Of a DNA stretch of 64,000 nucleotides, positions 29,119 through 61,242 are shown one piece after another. The number at the start of each line of letters is the position of its first letter. The first letter of the stretch is position 1. A model generated the notes under the pieces. The model searched no databases. It saw nothing but the letters and a program-made list of their open reading frames with translations, and had not been told where the DNA came from. The DNA is taken from positions 64,001 through 128,000 of IMG/VR virus record IMGVR_UViG_3300038415_000014; one strand, written 5' to 3'. Position numbers and translations under genes: made by a program. The DNA is from a virus.

Positions 29119-29334
29119 TTAGTCAGGGCATCCTGCGCACCCTCTACGGATGATGTAGGAAATGGAAGGGGCTTGGTCTGGTACTAATTGCAGAACCCCA
29201 TTGACAAACCTGAGTTTGACCAATCTAGCCCCTCTTAGCTTCAACTTGTCGGTACCTTCATTGACTGCACTCAAGCACTTACCAAGGTCATCCGGTAACA
29301 GCACTTCATTGCACTCAAAGGGTACTGGGAACAC
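29119..29334 (-). CDS. Small hypothetical protein
   Basis: 71 aa; GTG start 5 nt after TATACT (possibly leaderless). Confidence 0.45.
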   Translation of the reverse strand: MFPVPFECNEVLLPDDLGKCLSAVNEGTDKLKLRGARLVKLRFVNGVLQLVPDQAPSISYIIRRGCAGCPD

Positions 29335-29368
29335 GAGTGAGTATACACCAAGAGTAGTCGTTCACTCA

Positions 29369-30262
29369 CTACACCCCTAGGAACTTTGAAGGGGCTAGAA
29401 CACCTCGTCCCACGTAAGGACCAAAGCTCGACCTGATACCAGCCCCGTACTTGGGCTGCTGTAAGCCCTTGATGTATTTCACGGTAGCCTTGGCGCGCTC
29501 TAGCTGCTTGTCGAATTGATCAGCAGCCCCTTGCTTCAAGGACTCATACTTGCTTGACTTGTCCAAGTTCAAACTGACCCCACCAATGGAGTAATCGAAC
29601 TCGTCAGCGATCCAATTGGCTTGGAGAGCCCCAATGGCATGAACCTGAGCCCCCATTAGAAGAAGGGTTCTCCACTCAGGCCGTTGCTGCATCAAGTGAT
29701 CTACATGATTGAATGGGGTTCGAGGAGGAGCTGCAATAACCATGTCCAAAGCAAAGTCTATGAATTGAGCAAGCTCTTCACTTTCCCAGATGTAACCAAA
29801 GACCTTGCTAAATTGGTCGATAGTCTCTTCGTGGGCTGGAGGGCGGAACTTGTAGTTCCGGTCCGGGTTCGCATCTCGGAGCATGAACCTCAAGTTTTTG
29901 ATTAGCTCAATCTGGTAACCTGAGAAGAAGTCGTTGGGTGTCGCCACCTCACGATCCTGGATGTTGAACTCTTGCACCACCGACTGAAGAGGACCACCCA
30001 GCATCTCGCGCATGGTCCACCGGACTCGATAGTCTCCAATGTTAGCATCGAGTGGGACAACCAAGCTAACGAAGTACTCACCTATGGAGGAGTTGACCGG
30101 GATCCTCCTCTGGGGGCCAACGAGCACCTCTTGCCCAGTGGTATTGTCGTAGATGGCGTAGTTGATCTCTGCCGCATTGACAGGGTGGCCAGAGGAGTTG
30201 GTCAAGAAGATGTTCAGATCACTACGACCCAGTTGCTGACCTCTTAGAAACGAAGTTCCCAT
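29369..30262 (-). CDS. Head-tail adaptor (neck) protein with N-terminal Ig-like domain
   Basis: IKNLRFMLRD...ELAQFIDFAL...DEFDYSIGGVSL resembles a helical adaptor; N-terminal domain paralogous to 30266..30754. Confidence 0.55.
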   Translation of the reverse strand: MGTSFLRGQQLGRSDLNIFLTNSSGHPVNAAEINYAIYDNTTGQEVLVGPQRRIPVNSSIGEYFVSLVVPLDANIGDYRVRWTMREMLGGPLQSVVQEFNIQDREVATPNDFFSGYQIELIKNLRFMLRDANPDRNYKFRPPAHEETIDQFSKVFGYIWESEELAQFIDFALDMVIAAPPRTPFNHVDHLMQQRPEWRTLLLMGAQVHAIGALQANWIADEFDYSIGGVSLNLDKSSKYESLKQGAADQFDKQLERAKATVKYIKGLQQPKYGAGIRSSFGPYVGRGVLAPSKFLGV

Positions 30263-32752: not shown

Positions 32753-33871
32753 TTACAGAGCGTACTTGTTGGAGATCATGTCGTTAACTTCGACAATGAC
32801 CCAAGTCTTGCCAGTGGTCGGGACGGTCGGAATGGTTGCCGTCGCGGCAATGAGCGAAGCCGGGACAACAATCGAGGTGTCCGAGATAGTACCACCAGCA
32901 GCCAAGATTTGAGCACTAGTGATACGTCGACCACCAAGACCACTGATGATCACGGTTGAGGTATAGAGACCATACCCTAGCAAGCCACCTGAGGCGCCAT
33001 TGATGGTAAGGCTACCTGAGAGGGACAGGCTGGTGATGACCGGAGTCAAGACCGTGTAGAGACTGGTTGATGTCGAGGAGGCATTCACATCTTGAACGAC
33101 CTGGATGGCTTGCCCTGCTGACGCCGGAGGGTGATTGAGGTCACCTCTTGAGTCAGGACAGAAGCTCGAAGACAGATATCCGTGAATAGAACCAGCCAGG
33201 AAGCTCTTCTTGACCGAGTCAGTCTCCACGAAGTGGTAACCGAGCATGTTCTGAAGGGCAACTACCTGAGCGTTGGAGGCGCCAGCTAGCCCTATGATAG
33301 CCTTGATGGCCGTCGCAGAGATGTCTATTGTGGGGACCGGAGTACCCCCGGCGTAACTGGGAACCGTGGCCGTGATCAGAGTAGCTGCAACCTCCACCGC
33401 CACACTGACTGAAATGGTACCATTGAAGTCAGTTGTTGGGGTGACAGCCAGGGTGGCTGTGGTGGAAGCAGCAAATGTAACTGAAGTGGTTCCGGAGATA
33501 GCACCAGTAGTCCCACCACCAAAGGTAGCCGTCACGGTACCAGCAGTACTGCCAGTGATTGTGATGGTTAGGGTGTAGACCTGAAGAGCTACAGCGGCCA
33601 AGGTGTTGGTTAGAGCTGTAGTATTCCCAGTATTGTGGGTAAAGGAGTTGTAAGTCCCTGTCCACCCAGTAGCGGTCCACCCAGTCGACTTGAGGAGCTG
33701 GTTGAGCCCCTGAGCATCCAAGTACTTCTGAATGTTGGTTCGGTTCGGACGAGAGACATACCTGGTCTGTCCCTTAGGAGACTCAGTTGTCGGATTGTTC
33801 TGCGAAGTCGATTCGACGTCCGAAATGAAAAGAGGGTTCTTGATATCGCTTCGGATAACTACTAGAAACAT
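32753..33871 (-). CDS. Thr/Ser-rich virion surface protein with one IPT-like repeat
   Basis: Shares a 95-aa module with the sheath and the AGGT.S.TSIVVPASL motif with 34260..35798. Confidence 0.65.
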   Translation of the reverse strand: MFLVVIRSDIKNPLFISDVESTSQNNPTTESPKGQTRYVSRPNRTNIQKYLDAQGLNQLLKSTGWTATGWTGTYNSFTHNTGNTTALTNTLAAVALQVYTLTITITGSTAGTVTATFGGGTTGAISGTTSVTFAASTTATLAVTPTTDFNGTISVSVAVEVAATLITATVPSYAGGTPVPTIDISATAIKAIIGLAGASNAQVVALQNMLGYHFVETDSVKKSFLAGSIHGYLSSSFCPDSRGDLNHPPASAGQAIQVVQDVNASSTSTSLYTVLTPVITSLSLSGSLTINGASGGLLGYGLYTSTVIISGLGGRRITSAQILAAGGTISDTSIVVPASLIAATATIPTVPTTGKTWVIVEVNDMISNKYAL

Positions 33872-34259: not shown

Positions 34260-35798
34260 TCATGACGAAGTTAGAGCCACAGCGGGAGTTGACGTGTGTG
34301 TGTTCGCTGTAACTGCTGCTGAATCGACGGTTATGGCGATCCCAGACGGAAGGGCCGCAACTGGAATGACAATCGAGGTTGCAGTGAACGTGGTGAAGCT
34401 GGTAGCCGCTACAGTACCCGCATGAGTCCCAGTGATAGCTACTGTGGTCAGATTCGGCAGAACCGAGAGGAACCCTGTACCGGTCAGGGTCAGGATTCCA
34501 GCAGCAAAGACTGCCTTGCTGACCGTAGGAGTTGCTAGGGTTGCAGTCATCGTGTAGGCTGCAGTCGTCATAGCATCAGCTGTAACCGCCACAGTGCTCG
34601 TCCCGATGGTGAGAACCGGTAGTAACGAAGCCGGGACAACAATCGAAGTAGCACCAACGCTTCCACCAGCTGTTGTGATCTGAGAAGAAGTCAGGGTTAC
34701 AGTAGTCGCCCCAACGACGGTCACCGAGGTCACATCCGGAGCCAAGGAGAGGAAATTGGTACCACCGATGGTTAGGTTGCCTGTACCACCGGCATCGACT
34801 ACGCCGGTCGCGATAGTCGGAGTCGCAGAGGTGATCAGAACAGCTGTAGAGGTCGTAGAATCAGCTGTAACCGATACTGTTGTGGTTCCGACTGCAATAG
34901 TCGGGAGCAAACTCGCCGGGATGACAATCGAGGTGTCGGCAAAACTTCCTCCACCTGCAGCAGCAATAGCAGCAGCCGTGAGAACCGTCGATCCTACTGT
35001 CACCGTTGACAGATCCGGAGCCAGCGAAACGAAGTGAGTACCAGTAAGGGTCAAAACTCCGGTACTGACTACAATCACCGCGGTAGTGATGGTCGGAGCC
35101 GCAGAGGTGATCAGAGCCGTAGCTGACTTGTTGTTTGCATTGACCGTCACAGTTGTCGTTCTGACCGCAATGGTTGGAAGTAAACCAACCGGAATGACAA
35201 TCGAGGTTGCAGTAAAAGTTCCTCCTGCCCCTGTGATGGTAGCCGAGGAGAGCGTTGTGGTACCAATCTTCACCGAGGATACATCCGGGGATACCGAGAG
35301 GAATGTAGTACCAGTGATGGTCAGAGCTTCTGGACTAACCACAATAACTGCTGAGCTAATTACCGGAGCTACTGTAAGGGTAGGGTCTATTGTAGTCACG
35401 GTGATGAGGGGATAGGTTGCATGCCCAGCAATTGTACTAGCTAAAGCTGCAATGACTCCATGATCCTGACTCAATAGAACCCTGTCCGAAAGGTTCACAT
35501 CAATGTACCCAGGAACTGTGGTGCTATGAACCCCACCGGGTAGGATCTCCCATAGTGGGATGTAACACTTTTGCTTCGGATAGTTAACTTCAGGGAGAGT
35601 ACTGGAGTCACGCCCTGCAGTACTACCATCTCTTCGATAACTGGCTGGGGCCAACTTACCGCCCGCGACTAGTACAGGGCTGCCATTGACCCTAGCCCTA
35701 ACCAGCCCACATCTTGCAGATTTGTTGGGGAGTCCATCGTCAATATCACTGACGAGGATAGAACCTGAAATAGTCTGGTTATGGATGAGCCTCAGCAT
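34260..35798 (-). CDS. Thr-rich virion surface protein with four IPT/TIG-like Ig repeats
   Basis: Four units of about 90 aa: P.I...LT(I/L).GT.F.S..PD...TSIV(I/V)P..L; AGGAG SD. Confidence 0.75.
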   Translation of the reverse strand: MLRLIHNQTISGSILVSDIDDGLPNKSARCGLVRARVNGSPVLVAGGKLAPASYRRDGSTAGRDSSTLPEVNYPKQKCYIPLWEILPGGVHSTTVPGYIDVNLSDRVLLSQDHGVIAALASTIAGHATYPLITVTTIDPTLTVAPVISSAVIVVSPEALTITGTTFLSVSPDVSSVKIGTTTLSSATITGAGGTFTATSIVIPVGLLPTIAVRTTTVTVNANNKSATALITSAAPTITTAVIVVSTGVLTLTGTHFVSLAPDLSTVTVGSTVLTAAAIAAAGGGSFADTSIVIPASLLPTIAVGTTTVSVTADSTTSTAVLITSATPTIATGVVDAGGTGNLTIGGTNFLSLAPDVTSVTVVGATTVTLTSSQITTAGGSVGATSIVVPASLLPVLTIGTSTVAVTADAMTTAAYTMTATLATPTVSKAVFAAGILTLTGTGFLSVLPNLTTVAITGTHAGTVAATSFTTFTATSIVIPVAALPSGIAITVDSAAVTANTHTSTPAVALTSS

Positions 35799-36092: not shown

Positions 36093-39000
36093 ATGACTAT
36101 TGCTGGCATCAGAGTCCTCACCATCGGAAAGACATTCAGTCTACCCCACAATGTCGCGCATATCGAAGGTACAACCCACCTACTCGAAACAATCGCCACC
36201 TTTAGACCAGATGTCATAGTCACCCCCGAGTATGTACCAGGAGCGCTCACTCAGGCTTGCCACGAGTTGAGGAAACGGTGGATCCATGTTCCGCCTGACG
36301 TGTCCGCTGAGGAGCTTTGTTCACTAGTCGAGGGATGCTACTCGTTCAACCTTTGGACTGAGAATCAATTCGCAAAAGATCACCCGATGGTCTCTGTATA
36401 TACCCCTACTCATGACTCAGGAGACTACCTGCAGGATACATTCCAGTCGCTGCGAGGTCAGACCTATGCCAACTGGGAATGGGTTGTCGTAGATGACCAC
36501 TCCTCAGACAAGACCTGGGCCAGGCTCCAAGAGTTCGCAGCCCAGGATTACCGAGTTCGACCATTCCAAAGTGGTATGCACCTAGGTAAAATAGGTGCAC
36601 TCAAAGACCTGACTACCAGACTCTGCAGGGGAAAGTACCTTGTTGAACTAGACCACGACGATATGCTTACAGAAACAGCTTTGGATGAGGTAAAGAATGC
36701 CTTCGAAGCTCACCCTGATGTTGGTATGGTTTACACAAATAGTGCTTCGTTCTATGAGAACGGGAACCCTCAACGATTCTCAGGATCACCATGGGATGAT
36801 CCCAATAGGTACCGCGAGGTTGAGTACCACGGGCGAAAGTACTTGGAGTGCAGCAACCCGAATATTTATGATCGATTTGGACCACATTTCACTCAGGTAT
36901 TCGGTTGGTTCCTCACAGTAGGCCCCCACCACATCCGGGCGTTTCGAGCAGACACCTTCCGCCAGCTGGGAGGCTACAACCCAGAGCTACCTATCGCGGA
37001 TGACTGGGACCTGTATGCCAGGTTCTTCCTAGAGTCTAAGTGCTTCCACATAGACAAGCTCCTGTACTTGTATCGGTACCGAGATGGTTTTGGCAATGTT
37101 ACCTTCCAACGCCTCCAGTCCATTCAAGACCACTTGGCCCTAGGTCGAAACCACTACGTTGAAAGATTCAGGAGGAAGAACGAGGAGCTACTGGCTAGCC
37201 AAACCCCTGTCTTCGTGGTCAACGACCCAACACCAAAACCTTGCCCAGATGAGAGCCCATCCGCCAGTATCTCATTCGTTGTTCTAGATGCCACTGGCAA
37301 GGATAACGCGGTTGACTGCCTGAAGAGCCTGAAGCTCTATGCCCCTGATGCAGAGATTATCCTAGTCGAGAATGGTTGTGATTCAAAAGCTCGAAAAGAG
37401 GCTCATACTGCTCTGACAAGCTCTCATAACCTTGGGTTCGGAGCTGGATGCAACTTAGGTGCTAGTGCGGCCACCCGTCCGTACTTGTGCTTCATTAATG
37501 ATGATGCAGCCCTCGTGGACGCGGAGACTATCCCAAAGCTCCTAGTTGCTGCCAAGATGAATGCCATTGCTGGGGCCTACTCGGACCGGGCAAAGCCTCC
37601 TCAAGGAGACTGGTCACCTGAGTCAGCACCAAAGGCGGACCAAGTTCTACCCATGGTAGCCGGGCTCTGCATGGTGATGTCCAAGAGCCTGTTTGACTCT
37701 CTCGGAGGGTTTGACCCACGCTTCTTGACCTGGGAGGATGATGACCTCTGTGTCAGGGCTAGACGCCGAGGGGCGAGCTGTGTAGCTGTCGGAGGAACCT
37801 TCGTTCATCACAAGGGTCACCAGACCTTCGAGGCCATGAAGCTCGACCATGTGGCGGTCGAGGACAAGAACCATAGGCTATTCAACCTAAAGCACCCAAA
37901 GATCAAGATCATTGCCATTGCCAAGAATGAGGAGAACTGCATTGTCGAGTTCTTCAAGCAGTTCGAGTCAATCACACACGATTGGTACATGCTCGACACG
38001 GGCTCGACAGACAGAACAATAGAACTGGCTGATTCTATTGGAGTTAGAGTGGAATCTGCTCCGTTCGTGGACTTTGCCACTACCCGCAACCAAGCTTTGA
38101 ATACCTTTGACCCAAAGGAGTGTTGGACTGACTCAGAAGGTAGCTGGGTTATCATGCTCGACCCTGACGAGCGCTTGGACAAGCAAACCATCGCTGCCAT
38201 CCCTGAACTGATCTTCAACAGGCGTATCGTCTCGCAGAGCGCGTTTGATACTTATCTTGCACCCCTGACCGCTGTATACCCAGACGGAAGTAGAAAAGAA
38301 TTTGTAGCCAAGCCATTCCTTTTCAAGAACAACAGCACCTCCAAATGGGTTTTCAAGGTTCATGAGAAGTGGGTAACTGAGGACCATTGCTCGTGTCATG
38401 GTCAATGCGCGATAGTCACCAACGCACTCATCGAGCATCGGATTGAGTTCCACACAGGCAAGCATCGCGATGGGGCCGAAGACCTGTACTCCAGGTTGAT
38501 GTCCGAGGAGCCCTACTTCCAAGACCCAGAGTACAAGGCCAAGATGCGTGAGGATCATCCCATACTCGACTATGATCACACGGATGACCCTCGGATAGCC
38601 AAGATCCAAGCGGGTCCACTGGTCAGCGTGGTAATCCCAACGTACAAGAGAACAGACTTACTAAGAAAAGCCGTACTCTCTGCCCTAACTCAATCGTACA
38701 AGACGCTGGAAGTCATTATTGTTGGGGATCACTGTCCAGAGTTGGATTCGGCTGCGTTCGACGTGAGTCCCTACTCAGAAGAGCCACGAGTCAGGGTCAT
38801 CAATCTGGCAGAGAACCATGGGGCTGGTGGAGCAGAGCCCAGGAACATAGCCATCAACCTAGCTACCGGGCAGTACATCGCCTATCTGGATGATGACAAC
38901 ACCTGGGCGAAAGACCACGTGAGCAACTTGCTGACTACCATCTTGGCGGAGAAGTCTGTCTGGGGTTGGTCGTCGATGATGGTCAATGGGGTCGACCTGA

Positions 39001-40061
39001 ACTTCGATCGGCTTGAGCGTGGTAAGATTGACACCTCGTGTGTCATTCACCACAAGAGCCTAATCCAGAAGCATGGGGTTTGGAAGCCAAGAACCGAGGC
39101 AAACTATTGGCATGACTACGAGTTGTTCTCACGCTGGAGAAAAGAGCCTCAGACGGTAACTGGATACCCGTCAGTCAGCTATAATGCGAGTGCTTCTGGG
39201 CAAGGAGCCTTCCTGGCTAGCCTGACATCTTCAGACCAAGTCACTGACCTACCATTTGAACCTTCTGCTGCGATACCCCCTGAACCAAACCTACTGACCA
39301 TCGGCATCCTGAGTCTGGAATCCCGTGCTGATATGCTCAGCAAGTTGCTACAGGAGCTTGAGCGCCAACAAGCGACTCTACCCTCCTCTAACTCCGTAAA
39401 GATCGTACTTGAGGTGGACAATGGGGATGCCACTGTTGGGGGCAAGCGTCAGAAGATCATAAACGAGTGCAGTACTGAGTACTTGTGTTTTGTAGATGAT
39501 GATGACCTGGTAGAACCAACCTACCTGCAGTCAGTCCTACGGGCTCTCAAGGGCAAACCTGACTGTGTCACATTCAAGGGCATAGTCACCACTGACAACC
39601 ATAACCCCGAGCAGTTCCGCTTGTCCTTGCACTACCCAGCAGGAGCTTGGTCCAAGGATGCTCAGGGGACTCACATGAGGACCCCGAACCATCTGTGTCC
39701 AATGAAGATTGAGATAATGAGGAAAGTGACCTACCGAGACATTACCTCATATGAGGATGCTCTCTGGGGCATGTGGATCCACCCACTCCTGCATAGTCAA
39801 TGCCATATTGACGAGGTCTTGTACCACTACCGATACAGCCCAACCGGGTCAGAAGCAGCCAAGAGAGCACCGAAGCTCATTCCAGGGAAGCTGTTTGAGC
39901 TAGGGGCAGACGGGCTCTTCTATGACTTGAATGGAAAGTCCTACGCCCCCGAGAAGGCTCTTGAGATACTCAACGACCTGATTGGTGCGACCAGACCCCA
40001 GGATGTGACTGCCTTCACACTACGATACCCTGTTCTGTTCAAAGAACTACCAAAGCCCTAG
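36093..40061 (+). CDS. Multidomain glycosyltransferase with five tandem GT-A (GT2-like) domains
   Basis: Domain starts VSVYTPTH, ISFVVLD, IIAIAKNEE, VSVVIPTYKR, LTIGILSL, each followed by an acidic DxD-type motif (LDHDD, INDDA, LDPDE, LDDDN, VDDDD); AGGAG SD. Confidence 0.9.
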   Translation: MTIAGIRVLTIGKTFSLPHNVAHIEGTTHLLETIATFRPDVIVTPEYVPGALTQACHELRKRWIHVPPDVSAEELCSLVEGCYSFNLWTENQFAKDHPMVSVYTPTHDSGDYLQDTFQSLRGQTYANWEWVVVDDHSSDKTWARLQEFAAQDYRVRPFQSGMHLGKIGALKDLTTRLCRGKYLVELDHDDMLTETALDEVKNAFEAHPDVGMVYTNSASFYENGNPQRFSGSPWDDPNRYREVEYHGRKYLECSNPNIYDRFGPHFTQVFGWFLTVGPHHIRAFRADTFRQLGGYNPELPIADDWDLYARFFLESKCFHIDKLLYLYRYRDGFGNVTFQRLQSIQDHLALGRNHYVERFRRKNEELLASQTPVFVVNDPTPKPCPDESPSASISFVVLDATGKDNAVDCLKSLKLYAPDAEIILVENGCDSKARKEAHTALTSSHNLGFGAGCNLGASAATRPYLCFINDDAALVDAETIPKLLVAAKMNAIAGAYSDRAKPPQGDWSPESAPKADQVLPMVAGLCMVMSKSLFDSLGGFDPRFLTWEDDDLCVRARRRGASCVAVGGTFVHHKGHQTFEAMKLDHVAVEDKNHRLFNLKHPKIKIIAIAKNEENCIVEFFKQFESITHDWYMLDTGSTDRTIELADSIGVRVESAPFVDFATTRNQALNTFDPKECWTDSEGSWVIMLDPDERLDKQTIAAIPELIFNRRIVSQSAFDTYLAPLTAVYPDGSRKEFVAKPFLFKNNSTSKWVFKVHEKWVTEDHCSCHGQCAIVTNALIEHRIEFHTGKHRDGAEDLYSRLMSEEPYFQDPEYKAKMREDHPILDYDHTDDPRIAKIQAGPLVSVVIPTYKRTDLLRKAVLSALTQSYKTLEVIIVGDHCPELDSAAFDVSPYSEEPRVRVINLAENHGAGGAEPRNIAINLATGQYIAYLDDDNTWAKDHVSNLLTTILAEKSVWGWSSMMVNGVDLNFDRLERGKIDTSCVIHHKSLIQKHGVWKPRTEANYWHDYELFSRWRKEPQTVTGYPSVSYNASASGQGAFLASLTSSDQVTDLPFEPSAAIPPEPNLLTIGILSLESRADMLSKLLQELERQQATLPSSNSVKIVLEVDNGDATVGGKRQKIINECSTEYLCFVDDDDLVEPTYLQSVLRALKGKPDCVTFKGIVTTDNHNPEQFRLSLHYPAGAWSKDAQGTHMRTPNHLCPMKIEIMRKVTYRDITSYEDALWGMWIHPLLHSQCHIDEVLYHYRYSPTGSEAAKRAPKLIPGKLFELGADGLFYDLNGKSYAPEKALEILNDLIGATRPQDVTAFTLRYPVLFKELPKP

Positions 40062-40732
40062 AAGTCACACCCAAAAAGTACAGAGTTACCTGGTCCAGCA
40101 CCCCCGTACGGAGCTATGGATGCTATTACCTCAGCGGCAAGTGTGAAGTTTGGACTACTGTTCCAACCAGCATTATTAATGCCAGGGGTTGTAGTAGTAG
40201 TTAGACCGCCTGCACCGGCTATGTTGCTTGATGAGGGGTTGGTTAGCATTGAAGTGTAAATAGGTGTCAATGTAGTACCTGGAGTCACACCTACAAAGTC
40301 AAAGAGCCAAGCATTAGCAGCAATAGTGGTGATAGTCGTAGCTATGCTAGCAGCGGAGGCCGCGGTAACTGATTTAGTAACTCCTGGAGCTGTTTGAGCA
40401 GCTCCAAGTAGCGAGATAGAACCCCCTCCAGTATAAGTTGTGGACCCAGACGAAGTTACGATGATGTTATAGGTTCCAGAGGCTGGAAGTTGTGACTCTA
40501 GTGCATAATAGATTGCTACTAGCAGACCAGTGCTACTTAGTACAGAAACAGCTAAGCTTAGGGTTACACTATTATTGTAAGTTACCTGATTCAAGGTTGG
40601 ACCTGAACCAGCCATAACAGTACCAACCAAAAGGATGCGATTGTTGCCAGACGCGCCAATGGTATGACTAAAAGTCACCTGGTTGCTTGTAACAGCAGAA
40701 CCAGCACTAGAATAATCGTAGCTTAGGGCCAA
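40058..40732 (-). CDS. Beta-sandwich fibre-associated protein
   Basis: S/T/A/G-rich beta protein downstream of fibre genes; TTG start; stop overlaps the convergent glycosyltransferase stop. Confidence 0.55.
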   Translation of the reverse strand: MALSYDYSSAGSAVTSNQVTFSHTIGASGNNRILLVGTVMAGSGPTLNQVTYNNSVTLSLAVSVLSSTGLLVAIYYALESQLPASGTYNIIVTSSGSTTYTGGGSISLLGAAQTAPGVTKSVTAASAASIATTITTIAANAWLFDFVGVTPGTTLTPIYTSMLTNPSSSNIAGAGGLTTTTTPGINNAGWNSSPNFTLAAEVIASIAPYGGAGPGNSVLFGCDF

Positions 40733-40736
40733 AGAA

Positions 40737-41330
40737 TTAACCTATCTTAGCAATGCACAACCTAGCCCGACGACAGTGTACAGTCACGGCCCCGACATTC
40801 TTGTATTGCAATAGTAGGGTTACCGTGGCCCCATCGACCACAGTAAAAGGTACCACTACACTGAATACATGCGGAACCGCTTGTTCCCAAGAGTCTTCAT
40901 ACAAGGCAGAACCATTGTATGATAGCAAAGCATCACTGAAGGTGCTGGCTACGAGTGTATCCAAGAAATGCTCACAATCCAAAGTTCCAAGATAGGTACC
41001 AGCAGGCAAGGGGCCTGCATTGAGGGTTAGTTTAGTCACATAAGCACTACCAGAGGTAGTGGTGTCCGAGGTATCCGTTGCCTGCACCAACGTGGAGCCG
41101 AATACAGCACCTGTATGAGCGGCCACGACCGCATTCAGGGCGGTGATATCAGAAGCCGACAACTCACCAGTAAACGTGAGAACGACTGCGGATCCAGTTA
41201 GCTGAGGTTGGCCTGCTAATGGAACACTCAAACTTGCCGCTACGATCTGAGCAGCTAGAACTGGTGAGTTCACTACGTGATTGGGAAACTCTGTGAGTTG
41301 GTAGGTTTCGGTAGAAGTCAGTGAAGGCAT
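40737..41330 (-). CDS. Fibre-associated virion protein
   Basis: T/A/V-rich; DITALNAVVAAH linker followed by a beta domain. Confidence 0.55.
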   Translation of the reverse strand: MPSLTSTETYQLTEFPNHVVNSPVLAAQIVAASLSVPLAGQPQLTGSAVVLTFTGELSASDITALNAVVAAHTGAVFGSTLVQATDTSDTTTSGSAYVTKLTLNAGPLPAGTYLGTLDCEHFLDTLVASTFSDALLSYNGSALYEDSWEQAVPHVFSVVVPFTVVDGATVTLLLQYKNVGAVTVHCRRARLCIAKIG

Positions 41331-41339
41331 GTGATTCTC

Positions 41340-42413
41340 CTAGGGTGCAAATGCTTTAGAGATAACTGCGTAGATCTGGGACCCGTTGTAGTAGATAGCC
41401 ACTATATCCTGAGACCCATTGGGTGTGCTTAAGACTAAATTAGTAGCCTTGCCTCCAGGAGCCCATACAGCTGTTGGCCATGTTAGGATTCGGCTACCTG
41501 TACCGTCTTGTACGACACGCAAAATGTAGTTACCTACCCCGGGGAAGGTGATCCCTGTGATAGTAACGCTCCCTCCGAGCAAGACCATCTGCTTTTGACC
41601 ATTCGAGAAGGAGATGGCAAAGTTAGACGTGACAGCTGTACCACTGTTGATTTGATACTCTGCCGAAAACGCGACATATACCTCACCTGTTGCTGTTGTC
41701 GGGAAGTTGCCTTGGAAGCCTTGGTTGCCTTGCCACCCTTGAGCGCCTTGCCATCCCTGATTGCCTTGGTTACCCTGGTTTCCTTGCCAACCTTGCCAAC
41801 CTTGATTGCCTTGGACGCCCTGGACTCCGGTTGATCCAATAGCGCCCTGGAAGCCTTGGTTGCCTTGATTACCTTGTCGGCCCTGCTGGCCTTGGACGCC
41901 CTGGATCCCTTGGACTCCCTGGGTACCTTGCCATCCTTGGTTGCCTTGATTCCCTTGCCAGCCCTGAGATCCGACAAGGCCCTGGTTGCCTTGCCATCCT
42001 TGAACGCCTTGACCTCCGACGTTCCCTTGGTTGCCCTGCCAGCCCTGGGGGCCCTGCCAACCTTGATTACCTTGGTTGCCTTGCCAGCCCTGAGGGCCCT
42101 GATCCCCCAGCGCACCTTGCCAACCTTGGTTGCCTTGATTACCCTGGTTGCCTTGCCAACCCTGAGGGCCCTGGACTCCCGTCCCCTGCCATCCTTGGTT
42201 GCCTTGGTTGCCTTGATTCCCTTGCCAACCCTGAGCACCCTGAGGGCCCTGGATCCCGGTTCCCTGCCAACCTTGATTACCTTGGTTGCCGGTTGATCCG
42301 ACATCTCCCTGATACCCCTGATTGCCTTGAGTTCCGGTTAATCCGGTGAGACCTTGGTTGCCTTGCCAACCTTGGTTGCCTTGGTCTCCTTTCAGGTTGT
42401 TGACAAGATACAC
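41340..42413 (-). CDS. Collagen-like fibre protein with C-terminal beta domain
   Basis: About 75 G-X-Y triplets; C-terminal VVQDGTGSRILTWP..DIVAIYYNG typical of phage fibre tip domains; GGAGG SD before GTG. Confidence 0.85.
   Translation of the reverse strand: MYLVNNLKGDQGNQGWQGNQGLTGLTGTQGNQGYQGDVGSTGNQGNQGWQGTGIQGPQGAQGWQGNQGNQGNQGWQGTGVQGPQGWQGNQGNQGNQGWQGALGDQGPQGWQGNQGNQGWQGPQGWQGNQGNVGGQGVQGWQGNQGLVGSQGWQGNQGNQGWQGTQGVQGIQGVQGQQGRQGNQGNQGFQGAIGSTGVQGVQGNQGWQGWQGNQGNQGNQGWQGAQGWQGNQGFQGNFPTTATGEVYVAFSAEYQINSGTAVTSNFAISFSNGQKQMVLLGGSVTITGITFPGVGNYILRVVQDGTGSRILTWPTAVWAPGGKATNLVLSTPNGSQDIVAIYYNGSQIYAVISKAFAP
41703..42389 (-). repeat. Coding 9-nt-period repeat (GGx xxx CAR), G-X-Q collagen
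   Basis: Repeated ccttggttg/ccttgcca units on the plus strand. Confidence 0.9.
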
Positions 42414-44411: not shown

Positions 44412-45077
44412 TCACTTCGCGAAGTCGGTTACAGGCCTCAGCATATTTATCTTTTCAGCGGCATGCATCACAGCCTCTGATGCTGGCCAAGGTCCGTTTT
44501 CAGGCTCCAACTGACCTAGAGCCGTAGACATACTGTGGAGCGCTGAGAAGAAGTACCTCTTTGGGTTTTTGGGGTTCTTTCTAGCAAGCTTCAAAGAGGC
44601 AATCGCGGTATCAACCTCTAATTGATACCGTTCGAGCAACTCCTTATCAAGAGCAGCAGACTTGAAGTTGTCCTTGTGCTCGTCGTGCATCTCCTTCCAC
44701 TTCTTGGAGTCTGACTCACCCATATTCTGAGTCGGGTCCGCTGGCTTCCCCTCCTCAAACCGACTCCGACGAGCTTCTTCCGTAGCGAAGATGTTCCAAC
44801 GTGCATTGTTCATGAGCTTACCTTTGAGGGATCGAGGAACACTTTTGGGGATCTTGTGGGATGCTTCGGTGAGTTTACTTGCAACCTCGGTGAGACCAAG
44901 GTTTTGGAACATCATGCCTAGGGTTTGGACCGCGGTTGCCGTGTTCAAGAAGACCATCTGCCAACTATCAGACTTTGCAGAACTAGCAGCATCATCAAGC
45001 ATCCTAATAGCGTGCTTGAGGTTATCTTGGACCAGCTCAGACTTATCTGGGCTGACTGCGGCTTCGACAACGGTCAT
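44412..45077 (-). CDS. Hypothetical helical protein
   Basis: 221-aa ORF; ATGA overlap with the GIY-YIG stop. Confidence 0.65.
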   Translation of the reverse strand: MTVVEAAVSPDKSELVQDNLKHAIRMLDDAASSAKSDSWQMVFLNTATAVQTLGMMFQNLGLTEVASKLTEASHKIPKSVPRSLKGKLMNNARWNIFATEEARRSRFEEGKPADPTQNMGESDSKKWKEMHDEHKDNFKSAALDKELLERYQLEVDTAIASLKLARKNPKNPKRYFFSALHSMSTALGQLEPENGPWPASEAVMHAAEKINMLRPVTDFAK

Positions 45078-45946
45078 GAGACCCCCAGAGTAGCTTGAGC
45101 CTTTCTGGCTTTCTTTTCAGCTTGGTATCTTCGATTCTGATCACGACGTTTGGCTCGTTGGAGTCGAACTTTGAGTGGTAAACTGGCATCCCTTGCAACA
45201 GCTCTTGCTGATGCAATGGCTCGCCCCTTACGCAGCCCCTCAAGGTTTGCCCTCTGCCATTCAGGGTCTTCATGCTGGATACGAAGTTGTTCTAGGTTAG
45301 CCTTACGCCACTCAGGATCAGATAGCTTTCTCTGAGCTGCTTTTGAACATGCTTCGATGTAATCAAGGTCTTCAGCCCTTCTCCTAGCTCCCTCAGCCAC
45401 GTTCTTGCGCCAGCTCAGGTCTGCAGTTCGTTTATGAACCCCTTCTCTTAGCTTCTCTTGACACTCAGGGTCTTCAGATCTTCTTCTAGCCGCCTCGACC
45501 ACATTCTTATGCCACTCAGGAGTTGCAGAACGCCTACGAGAGCCTTCTGAACATGCCCTATGCCAATTAGGGTCTGCCTTTCTCTTACTGGCTCCTCGCA
45601 TCAACTTATCACGAGCTTCTGGAACAGAAAAGTCAACACCCTCACCACCGTTAGTTAGGTTGTACCCGTTTGGTACAGTACAACTATGAGATGCAATCTG
45701 AGCAACTTCAAACTTCAACATCTCCTCGACTGTAGACGCGGTTTCAAGACACTCAATCTTGAAGTTGCTAGCTCCATACTTTCGAATAGCTCGATGAAGG
45801 GCTAGAGGAGGATTACTTTTCTTTGCTAGACTCAAGTGCTGAGCCCATCGATGCCTAATGGATACCCTGGTACAACCGACATACCTCTTCCCGTTCACGA
45901 GATTCGTGATTAGGTAGACATACCCAGTAAAAGCAGTGGAATCCAT
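45074..45946 (-). CDS. GIY-YIG homing endonuclease
   Basis: GYVYLITNLVNGKRYVGCT...R.AQH...E...GYNLT, followed by about 18-aa helical repeats. Confidence 0.9.
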   Translation of the reverse strand: MDSTAFTGYVYLITNLVNGKRYVGCTRVSIRHRWAQHLSLAKKSNPPLALHRAIRKYGASNFKIECLETASTVEEMLKFEVAQIASHSCTVPNGYNLTNGGEGVDFSVPEARDKLMRGASKRKADPNWHRACSEGSRRRSATPEWHKNVVEAARRRSEDPECQEKLREGVHKRTADLSWRKNVAEGARRRAEDLDYIEACSKAAQRKLSDPEWRKANLEQLRIQHEDPEWQRANLEGLRKGRAIASARAVARDASLPLKVRLQRAKRRDQNRRYQAEKKARKAQATLGVS

Positions 45947-59436: not shown

Positions 59437-61242
59437 TTAGAACCTAGACTCAGGTTCCTGAGGTGCTTCAGTCTTCTTCAGGTGAAGGTAATCAGCAATC
59501 TTCTTTGATACGTCAGTTTCTTCTACCAGTTTACGACCTACCTCACCGTAGATGCCTCTCATCACCTCATTGAACGTTGCATCGTTCACGGTGAACATGT
59601 CCCTCTCAAGCTTTTCCTTGGTATCCATTGGATCAATATTGAAAAGCTCAAGGATCACATCAATACTGATGCTCCCCTTCTGATAGAGATTGAACAGAGC
59701 ATCAAAGGTATCCTGCGAATCACGGAGAGCCAATCGAGTGAAGCTGAGACGTGGGTATAAGACAACCTCGTTGCCCCATTCATCCTCTTCAACGAAACCC
59801 TTTCTACGGGCGACTGGTTTGAATAGGTACTTCTCAACATATTCCTGAATCATCTCTCTGAAGAGCAAGTACCTAGTGTTGAGAACTTCGAGTTTTACAC
59901 GGTCACCAGAGAACGTTGACTCACCATTGAGTAGTGACTCTGTCACCCCAAGACCAGCAAACATTTGCTTGTCTGTGATCTCGTATTCGGTAGACAAGTC
60001 CAAAAGACGGTCACGCGCTCCGATATCCTCCCAGTGGACCTCGTAGTTCGTGATGATGCTGTAGTCAGGATCAACCAGAGACAAGTCAACTTGCTCACGT
60101 AGGTCCTCGACGTCCAACTCAGACAACCCCTCACCCCAGATGAGGCGCTTGGGGGTCATTGCACGGGTAGCAATAAGAGTCTGGGCCTGACGGAGCTTCT
60201 CTCTATAGTAGAGGGTCCGGAGACACCTATCGAGGATGCTGGCGCCCAAGTCCTCCCCAGCACCCCTTCGAGCTGCTAGGTGGTAACAGAATGAACCCTC
60301 ATCAGGGTCAGTACCTAAGGGGATCAACTTGCCGGATTCGATGTATTCACGTACCTCGGCCGGTATCTCTTCGACCATCTCCTGGGCGCGCTCATCACCG
60401 GCCTTGGCCTGAGTGAATAGAACCTTGTCCCGGTCACTAGGGATCAACTCGATTCGAGTCTTGTCCGTGAACGAGAAAGTTGTAAGCTTTACCTGGTCAA
60501 CGGGGAGGATGACCAGCTTGGACCACCCCTTGTAGTGCTTCTGGTAGTAAGCCAGGTCGCGCTCTTCATGGTCATCATAGGGCGAGACAACCTCTTCATC
60601 GGTTTCCGTACCTGAGCCGTCCTCATTAAGGACAGCCTTCGGGCGCCTCTCAACTCGGTTCCCGATATCGACCGGGATGTCAACGGATGAATCCTCAGCG
60701 AACAAGAACACGTTACCATCCAGCCAATAGTGGTGAACAGCCGTGATTAGTCGCTTGAAAAGATCAACCTTGTCACACATCCGCTCGAAGTAATCGAGGA
60801 TGTATTTTCCGTAGTTGTCCGCGCTCTTGAAACCCTGCGGACAAGTCCGAGGACGGGGGGTTGCCAACCTGACCTTTGATAGCGGCAACTCAGTGTGAAT
60901 GTCGATAGCTTGACCAACAAGTGGATCTGAGTTGTAAAAGTGGCGGTAAATCTCCCTCTTCTCTCGGAGGGACTGGGGTAGCTCAAGAAAGTCAGTGGAT
61001 AGCTGAGGAGAGAAGAACGAGCTTACTCCAGAGAGAGCAGTATTGGTTCCGGCGCCCGTGGGTACTGGGCCTCCATAGTTGCCCATCCCGCTCATATTCG
61101 AGGTACGAATACGCCGAGCTAGACGTTCCTTCTCGGTCAAGTTGGTGAACTTACCCTTTGCGGCGTAGGGGGCATACTGCCTACTGGTAGAGCTCCACGG
61201 AGGGGTGAACCCGCTCGGAGGAACATTGGTAAATCTAGCCAT
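59437..61242 (-). CDS. Portal protein (601 aa)
   Basis: Upstream of protease/scaffold/MCP; DPLVGQAIDI.TE and SILDRCLRTL..REKLRQAQ..IA helical wing/stem patterns. Confidence 0.75.
   Translation of the reverse strand: MARFTNVPPSGFTPPWSSTSRQYAPYAAKGKFTNLTEKERLARRIRTSNMSGMGNYGGPVPTGAGTNTALSGVSSFFSPQLSTDFLELPQSLREKREIYRHFYNSDPLVGQAIDIHTELPLSKVRLATPRPRTCPQGFKSADNYGKYILDYFERMCDKVDLFKRLITAVHHYWLDGNVFLFAEDSSVDIPVDIGNRVERRPKAVLNEDGSGTETDEEVVSPYDDHEERDLAYYQKHYKGWSKLVILPVDQVKLTTFSFTDKTRIELIPSDRDKVLFTQAKAGDERAQEMVEEIPAEVREYIESGKLIPLGTDPDEGSFCYHLAARRGAGEDLGASILDRCLRTLYYREKLRQAQTLIATRAMTPKRLIWGEGLSELDVEDLREQVDLSLVDPDYSIITNYEVHWEDIGARDRLLDLSTEYEITDKQMFAGLGVTESLLNGESTFSGDRVKLEVLNTRYLLFREMIQEYVEKYLFKPVARRKGFVEEDEWGNEVVLYPRLSFTRLALRDSQDTFDALFNLYQKGSISIDVILELFNIDPMDTKEKLERDMFTVNDATFNEVMRGIYGEVGRKLVEETDVSKKIADYLHLKKTEAPQEPESRF

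Follow-up and report, generated by a model that had tools for sequence, protein, structure and literature searches.

In C. difficile the transferase SgtA, composed of a GT-A domain and tetratricopeptide repeats (TPR), is encoded immediately upstream of bclA3 and attaches beta-O-GlcNAc to threonines of the collagen repeats (PMC7157674). Chlorovirus PBCV-1 encodes two multi-domain enzymes, A111/114R with three transferase domains and A064R with two together with a methyltransferase, in which each domain adds one sugar to a virion-protein glycan; the core of this glycan, common to all chloroviruses, is built by A111/114R, and variable decorations are the work of other enzymes (PMC9614988). In mycobacteriophages, subunits of the capsid and tail tube bear glycans synthesized by transferases of the phage (Freeman 2023, as cited in PMC12619734). 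Where surveys of huge phages mention glycosyltransferases, they list them solely as abundant genes of an auxiliary kind or for manipulation of the host. Here we analyze a gene encoding five glycosyltransferase domains in a single polypeptide of 1322 amino acids (aa), located in a 64,000-nucleotide stretch of viral DNA (the window; bases 64001-128000 of the 183,533-bp IMG/VR virus record IMGVR_UViG_3300038415_000014), to which all coordinates refer unless another locus is named. We propose that this transferase glycosylates stepwise the collagen-like fibre of its own phage with host nucleotide sugars, a reading towards which we lean slightly.

The gene is one ATG open reading frame (ORF) with an AGGAG sequence 7-11 nt upstream of the start codon. 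Its product consists of a 95-aa N-terminal domain (N-domain), five GT2/GT-A domains (D1 to D5) and a 60-aa tail, as follows.

36093..40061, plus strand: multi-glycosyltransferase gene, one ATG ORF, 1322 aa
36093..36377, plus strand: N-domain, residues 1-95; small alpha/beta subdomain, predicted to pack on D1
36378..37247, plus strand: D1, residues 96-385; GT-A, with DxD D187-D190 and a D303/D304/D306 motif
37248..37892, plus strand: D2, residues 386-600; GT2, with N469/D471 and an E548-D551 (EDDD) motif
37893..38597, plus strand: D3, residues 601-835; GmaR/SunS/ThuS-type GT-A, with KNEE, DTGSTD, DPDE and HE motifs
38598..39272, plus strand: D4, residues 836-1060; classical SpsA-like GT-A, with DxD D933-D935
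39273..39878, plus strand: D5, residues 1061-1262; GT2 module whose position is mobile in the family
39879..40058, plus strand: C-terminal tail, residues 1263-1322; small, helical and poorly conserved

Pfam recognized five separate Glycos_transf_2 stretches in the whole protein, with a total of 219 bits. The domains were additionally scanned singly against the PF00535 gathering cut-off of 23.3 bits, which D1 (80.4 bits), D2 (29.9), D4 (78.0) and D5 (29.2) exceeded and D3 (19.9) did not; despite this score D3 is counted among the five whole-protein stretches, and it is also matched by phrog_13126 (E 3.8e-14). An earlier note, made from the sequence alone, had claimed five successive GT-A domains, and this claim was borne out, D3 being backed by phrog_13126 and by the GmaR profile and ThuS fold matches given below. 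The domain starts proposed there (36387, 37269, 37900, 38620 and 39290) correspond to first strands at residues about 98, 393, 603, 843 and 1067, and the motifs it quoted were all located: LDHDD (186-190), INDDA (467-471), LDPDE (689-693), LDDDN (932-936) and VDDDD (1134-1138), together with WEDDDL (547-552), AKNEE (610-614), DTGSTD (635-640) and VHE (756-758). The acidic motifs of D1 to D4 are invariant across 18 relatives (D187-D190 with D303/D304 in D1, N469/D471 with E548-D551 in D2, D690/D692/E693 with H757/E758 in D3, and D933-D935 in D4), and of 53 D5 modules at least 90% retain D1135-D1138 and E1221/D1222, so that the quoted catalytic motifs show none of the degeneracy that the same note had considered. 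No 19-residue window of the 1322-aa protein has a mean hydropathy above 1.3, which indicates that there is no membrane anchor and that the transferase is soluble. The presence of five intact GT-A modules in one soluble polypeptide is thus confirmed.

AlphaFold models covered residues 1-390, with a predicted local distance difference test (pLDDT) score of 87.6 and a predicted template modelling (pTM) score of 0.86, and residues 601-1322 (pLDDT 83.9, pTM 0.60). The N-domain, modelled with a pLDDT of about 85-94, has no Pfam match and always co-occurs with D1, the unit with which the collagen linkage is associated. Conservation is highest in D1 and lowest in D5 and the tail. By profile, D1 matches the chondroitin polymerase K4CP with an E-value of 5.7e-39, and its model matches the folds of K4CP (2z86_B, Z 24.6, root-mean-square deviation (rmsd) 3.6 over 252 aligned residues) and heparosan synthase 2 (8vh7, Z 24.4). 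D2 is recognized by PF00535 (29.9 bits), PF13641 (29.2) and Glyco_transf_7C (23.0) and matches 6p61 (2.4e-11) and 5hea (4.3e-10) by profile. The D4 model superimposes on SpsA (1h7l, Z 23.7, rmsd 2.2, 189 residues aligned), and D4 and D5 together align to both domains of heparosan synthase 2 (8vh7). The GT-A fold of D5 is visible only through this two-domain alignment and a beta-alpha-beta pattern; D5 is also matched by phrog_14775 (E 4.6e-47) and, by profile, by TarS (2e-7).

GmaR acts on flagellin in Listeria, and ThuS and SunS act on glycocins. D3 shares the KNEE, DTGSTD, DxDE and HE motifs with these three enzymes and matches their GT-A domains far better than those of any other solved protein: GmaR was retrieved from the PDB by single-sequence search (E 5e-5) with all four motifs aligned, profile searches gave GmaR at 1.5e-25, ThuS at 6.9e-17 and SunS at 1e-14, the next family following at 3e-7, and the D3 model matched ThuS (7msk_B, Z 17.9, rmsd 3.0, 205 residues aligned). 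Judged by these sequence matches, D3 belongs to the protein- and peptide-glycosylating GT2 clade of GmaR, ThuS and SunS, from which it differs in being one module of a five-module chain and in lacking their substrate-binding extensions. The five domains are also of different GT2 subtypes, as had been supposed.

The kinship of the other modules points elsewhere. D1, D4 and D5 resemble K4CP, heparosan synthase, TuaG, WcaA, PglI and TarS, which are enzymes of polysaccharides and teichoic acids, and this resemblance speaks for host-surface remodelling, a serious rival to fibre glycosylation that on the whole we consider unlikely. The enzyme would then act on a lipid-linked or cell-wall glycan of the host (O-antigen, capsule or S-layer glycan), blocking superinfection or keeping progeny phages off debris, and its adjacency to a fibre gene would be that of a host-range cassette. 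Soluble GT2 enzymes commonly act on undecaprenyl-linked intermediates at the membrane, and the N-terminal part of D1 bears the PHROG label GtrB-like. The GtrB-like matches cover only residues 100-206, the generic nucleotide-binding half of D1, and the C-terminal membrane helices of Gtr-type enzymes are lacking, no hydrophobic segment being found (maximal 19-residue mean 1.3). The absence of any membrane segment, the absence of a flippase, polymerase or priming transferase among the Pfam-scanned neighbours, and the place of D3 among protein- and peptide-directed enzymes all argue against remodelling of the host surface.

Glycosylation of the phage's own fibre is suggested above all by gene order. 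Next to the transferase gene, at a distance of 1.3 kb, lies the following gene.

41340..42413, minus strand: collagen-like fibre protein, 357 aa; Pfam Collagen E 1.2e-34; matches to PHROG tail-fibre families

It encodes 75 Gly-X-Y triplets followed by a 120-aa globular C-terminal part and is the sole Gly-X-Y run of the 183-kb record. The Y position is occupied by Gln in 84% and by Thr in 5% of the triplets, the X position by Asn in 35% and by Trp, Phe or Tyr in 25%; Lys does not occur, and the collagen region holds about 10 Ser/Thr. A collagen-like gene is the only neighbour common to distant relatives of the transferase. Five other whole records (103-512 kb) have collagen loci 1.3-6.5 kb from the transferase gene and none or one elsewhere. 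We then surveyed 78 phage loci carrying a D1-type transferase, with flanks of up to 10 kb: 41 of them had a collagen ORF, separated from the transferase by a median of 1.3 kb, and in 27 of these 41 it lay upstream in the same orientation. After dereplication at 60% identity, collagen was found in 14 of 24 D1-type clusters (binomial p 7e-9 against a 10% background). In control sets, 3 of 28 phage loci with distant D3-only transferases had a collagen gene, as did 7 of 80 bacterial loci, among them three phage-like contigs of metagenome-assembled genomes (MAGs) and three BclA loci of Bacillaceae. The occurrence of relatives beside collagen-like fibre genes across many phages suggests that the transferase most likely sugar-coats the phage's own fibre. 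The specificity of this pairing, compared with only 3/28 for distant D3-type phage transferases, and its agreement with the proven BclA3-SgtA pairing speak against an enzyme directed at the host surface; the conservation of the family core in phages found in MAGs of very different taxa likewise fits a phage-borne acceptor better than a variety of host glycans.

Transferase-linked fibres (those of the window and of loci L091, L095, L096, L098 and L007) have exposed aromatic residues (Trp, Phe or Tyr) in 16-55% and Asn in as many as 52% of the X positions of their Gly-X-Gln triplets, and contain no Lys. Such a triple-helix surface is unusual and may bind carbohydrate. We found no non-collagen domain common to the window fibre and the other transferase-linked fibres, which share C- or N-terminal modules among themselves. 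No description of this transferase family, or of a collagen-transferase linkage in phages, was found in the literature; the conserved linkage to Gln-rich collagen-like fibre genes is previously undescribed, and the five-module enzyme is a new variant of viral multi-domain glycosyltransferases.

The family to which the enzyme belongs is large and phage-restricted. A search of 5.8 billion proteins returned 285 relatives of near full length; each of the best 120 exceeds 860 bits, and contigs of 100-512 kb carry many of them. Architectures, called with domain hidden Markov models built from close relatives, fell into the following forms.

N-D1-D2-D3-D4: 62 proteins
N-D1-[D5-type]-D2-D3-D4: 38 proteins
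N-D1-D2-D3-D4-D5, with or without tail: 13 proteins

The core N-D1-D2-D3-D4 is thus fixed and the D5-type module varies, standing at the end of the chain or after D1 or being missing; some members bear additional GT2_5 and Methyltransf_24 modules. The N+D1 unit also occurs alone (about 330-450 aa) or within two-module proteins; of 1.84 billion representatives clustered at 50% identity, 4275 match it at E<=1e-30. In the ESM Atlas, the clusters that match the N+D1 fold (residues 4-379; template modelling scores 0.87 and 0.72) are 75-84% viral, and a feature search started from the N-domain by itself yielded no usable match. In phage locus L146, D4-, D5-, D2- and D1-type modules are encoded as separate genes. 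In L087, where the transferase is 76% identical, a second gene of 423 aa with a D5-type module (L087 14008-15279) directly follows the multi-transferase gene and looks like a duplicated or split extra module.

Among 185,579 species genomes, true members were present on three MAG contigs only, all with phage-like neighbourhoods. These contigs, L007 (Promethearchaeota), L008 (Desulfobulbaceae) and L009 (Vampirovibrionaceae), measure 40-152 kb, have adjoining Gly-X-Gln collagen genes and are probably mis-binned contigs of huge phages. The remaining matches in species genomes are generic bacterial multi-GT2 proteins of 1200 to about 4200 aa, often with a D2-D3 pair, and since they reach such lengths a chain of at least five GT2 domains is not unique. 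Like K4CP and PmHS2, to which D1 is closest, they carry several GT-A modules per chain; unlike the phage enzymes they are chromosomal, share only 21-33% identity, lack the order N-D1-D2-D3-D4, and have largely unstudied functions. Genomes of Ignavibacteria, Bacteroidota, Verrucomicrobiota and Geobacter type (L051, L082, L034, L037 and others) encode many-GT2 proteins of 2000-4200 aa that often terminate in a conserved D2-D3-like pair. Megablast of the transferase gene against GenBank phages gave no match; a protein search of the same phages gave distant matches only, and those in Synechococcus phage S-CRM01 and the 735-kb LR756501 have no collagen gene nearby.

The pairing of SgtA with BclA3 resembles the present locus in that the gene of a soluble GT-A transferase adjoins that of a collagen-like surface fibre. 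The resemblance is closer in cassettes of small phages, where a collagen gene is followed by a D1 gene and then by a D3-like gene with TPR repeats, the latter having the architecture of GmaR and SgtA; in some of these cassettes the collagen Y position is Thr in 56-63% or Ser in 94-97%. TPRs are thus present in the stand-alone D3-like genes of small-phage cassettes and also in Bacillaceae proteins. In Peribacillus and Cytobacillus, Collagen+BclA_C genes are directly followed by a gene for a protein with D2-like, D3-like, TPR, GT2_5 and Methyltransf_24 modules, and D2-like, D3-like, GT2_5 and Methyltransf_24 modules are common to the phage family and these BclA-adjacent proteins. A BclA-type collagen gene adjoins a two-GT2 plus TPR protein at L018 5068-13189, L028 8115-12496 and L020 8744-11824 (Cytobacillus, Peribacillus and a Bacillota MAG); those from Cytobacillus and Peribacillus include Methyltransf_24 as well, and the former also GT2_5. 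The BclA-adjacent multi-domain proteins of Bacillaceae are candidate exosporium glycosylation enzymes. The phage system differs from these in belonging to a phage and not to a spore, in its Gly-X-Gln fibre with few Thr where BclA has Gly-Pro-Thr, and in an enzyme that has no TPR in the fused protein, adds a phage-specific N+D1 unit and comprises five modules rather than one to three.

The likeness to A111/114R and A064R of PBCV-1, drawn from their published description, is that of virus-encoded soluble multi-domain transferases, and the conserved core and variable decoration of chlorovirus glycans parallel the fixed D1-D4 and the variable D5 and methyltransferase modules seen here. The chlorovirus enzymes differ in serving eukaryotic viruses, in making N-glycans on the major capsid protein and in having three domains at most. 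Mycobacteriophages, as cited in PMC12619734, likewise use phage-encoded transferases to modify their own structural proteins; in that account the enzymes are few, separate and single-domain, the glycans are placed on extended C-termini of the capsid and tail-tube subunits, and no collagen-like fibre appears.

Fibre glycosylation might proceed as follows. The enzyme would act in the cytoplasm as a soluble five-module protein late in infection, drawing on host nucleotide sugars, and would build an oligosaccharide step by step on a phage structural protein, the most likely acceptor being the Gly-X-Gln fibre encoded 1.3 kb away. D3, as a GmaR/SunS/ThuS-type module, or the N+D1 unit would contact the protein; D1 to D4 would make a core glycan common to the whole huge-phage family, and a sugar particular to the lineage would come from D5, which is less conserved and movable. 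The glycan may serve fibre stability, shielding or host recognition.

Several points weigh against this proposal. The case for it rests wholly on sequence and gene order. The fibre is poor in Ser and Thr and hence offers no evident acceptor residue: with Gln at 84% of Y positions and only about 10 Ser/Thr in 75 triplets, the Thr or Ser expected at the collagen Y position of a BclA-type fibre is wanting, and O-glycosylation of the BclA style, with Thr in every triplet, cannot apply. We know of no GT2 enzyme that glycosylates Asn, Gln or Trp. Pfam found no TPR match anywhere in the 1322-aa protein, D3 thus being without the TPR part of GmaR and SgtA. The transferase gene lies on the strand opposite to the fibre gene, which excludes co-transcription in this lineage, and about half of the D1-type loci, including that of the 735-kb LR756501, have no collagen gene in the fetched flanks. 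Finally, tail-fibre regions of other phages gather glycosyltransferases ascribed to host O-antigen modification, those of pelagimyophages being read as host-surface modifiers (PMC7029224), and co-location in a host-range cassette could explain the linkage without any enzyme-substrate relation. This precedent counts in favour of host-surface remodelling, as does the hypervariability of the genes downstream of the collagen gene, which is expected of a host-range cassette. A more specific version of the proposal, in which huge phages possess an autonomous glycan assembly line whose four conserved modules attach a core oligosaccharide common to the family, together with a lineage-specific cap, to the Lys-free, Ser/Thr-poor fibre rich in Gln, Asn and aromatic residues through a non-canonical linkage (for example Asn/Gln amide or Tyr) initiated by N+D1, is a long shot; if true, it would be a protein-glycan chemistry undescribed for GT2 enzymes.

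Proteins richer in Ser and Thr are encoded on both sides of the transferase gene, where the following genes are found.

34260..35798, minus strand: Thr/Ser/Ala-rich protein, 512 aa; 29% Ser+Thr; four tandem repeats of about 92 aa, beta-sandwich-like
32753..33871, minus strand: Thr/Ser-rich protein, 372 aa; 27% Ser+Thr; one copy of the 34260-35798 repeat at its C-terminus
40058-40732, minus strand: Ser/Thr-rich gene, 224 aa; 28% Ser+Thr; downstream of the collagen gene; unique to this genome
40737-41330, minus strand: Ser/Thr-rich gene, 197 aa; downstream of the collagen gene; unique to this genome

The transferase gene is set, as the earlier note had described, between Thr/Ser-rich repeat proteins and a collagen gene, its flanking proteins containing 27-29% Ser+Thr compared with about 10-15% (typically about 12%) elsewhere. 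This setting raises the possibility that the acceptors are the Ser/Thr-rich proteins (34260-35798, 32753-33871 and 40058-41330), or else capsid or tail proteins, and that the collagen fibre is a bystander. Of the ORFs within 4 kb of the transferase, 4.3% encode proteins whose Ser+Thr content is 24% or higher, compared with 0.8% of those farther away, the number of about 92-aa repeats varies as is typical of exposed decoration proteins (four in 34260-35798, two in the close relatives L092 8734-9669 and L087 8774-9715, none in distant ones), and glycosylation of mycobacteriophage capsid and tail-tube proteins, as cited in PMC12619734, provides a precedent. The Ser/Thr-rich proteins are restricted to this lineage and two close relatives, and distant four-domain cores do without them; we therefore regard other virion proteins as improbable targets in place of the fibre, although the two targets are not mutually exclusive. 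As a conserved partner of the transferase the Thr/Ser-rich proteins were rejected beyond close kin, distant members having no such feature. Of the proposal in the earlier note that the glycan is built on virion surface proteins, the general part stands, a virion protein being the best supported acceptor in view of the D3 clade and the fibre linkage, and the preference for the Thr/Ser-rich Ig-like proteins does not.

The origin of the sugar donors was addressed with Pfam. Epimerase (PF01370), NTP_transferase (PF00483) and PF00534 matches were found neither in the 183-kb record nor in a complete 512-kb relative, which for these families extends to the whole record the observation that the window has no genes of nucleotide-sugar synthesis, and the lack of Epimerase and NTP_transferase genes implies that the sugar donors have to be supplied by the host. 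Nucleotide-sugar and GT4-type genes (PF01370, PF00483, PF00534) do occur in the more distant relatives G003 and G004.

A product other than a glycoprotein or a host glycan might be considered: an oligo- or polysaccharide that is free or secreted, a small molecule bearing sugar, or glycosylated DNA bases. In its favour, polymerising synthases are the closest structural kin of D1, and D4 gives a weak, sub-threshold match to Pfam TAGT (16.3 bits against a cut-off of 27.5). No thymidylate-synthase-type hydroxymethylase (Thymidylat_synt) was detected in five records including the complete 512-kb relative, which leaves DNA glycosylation, an alternative raised in the earlier note, without support; a Tet_JBP search gave no match, but its control gave no signal either. 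Since the five modules all differ and none is repeated, a defined oligosaccharide is a better fit than a polymer, and the gene is located among structural genes. We thus hold products of this kind to be very improbable.

The 183,533-bp record has a CheckV completeness of 38%, which suggests a whole phage genome of about 0.5 Mb, and the relative with an 82%-identical transferase orthologue is a complete genome of 512,571 bp with terminal repeats. Nearly all genes of the window are on the minus strand. Other recognizable genes are the following.

59437-61242, in the window: portal gene
In the window: helicase gene
45074-45946, minus strand: GIY-YIG homing endonuclease gene; phrog_314, E 2e-29

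The order of the GIY-YIG gene and its neighbour is reversed in the 512-kb relative, suggesting that the former is mobile. The transferase gene and gene 40058-40732 (minus strand) converge, and their 3' ends overlap. Described before as the only plus-strand gene, the transferase gene is indeed the sole large and unambiguous one; a plus-strand ORF of 72 aa at 29162-29380 is conserved in the two close relatives, one of which has it annotated as a gene, so that the transferase gene is not strictly alone on its strand. An invertible segment as the origin of the lone plus-strand gene was rejected, the inverted repeats being short and imperfect and none flanking the transferase gene. Promoter and terminator scans gave nothing above chance.

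To our knowledge, virion glycosylation is at present documented mainly for mycobacteriophages. If the fibre is indeed the acceptor, phage-encoded glycosylation of tail or whisker fibres would be widespread among uncultured phages, given the 4275 representatives of N+D1, and the glycans on them could bear on recognition of the host, on the stability of the fibre and on shielding from factors of host or environmental origin. Fibres rich in Gln and poor in Ser/Thr pose a concrete, testable question of linkage chemistry, and the Bacillaceae loci suggest candidate enzymes for exosporium glycosylation of the BclA type. The one-, two-, four- and five-module forms, split or fused, together with a module that changes position, constitute a natural series on the ordering of steps in multi-module transferases.

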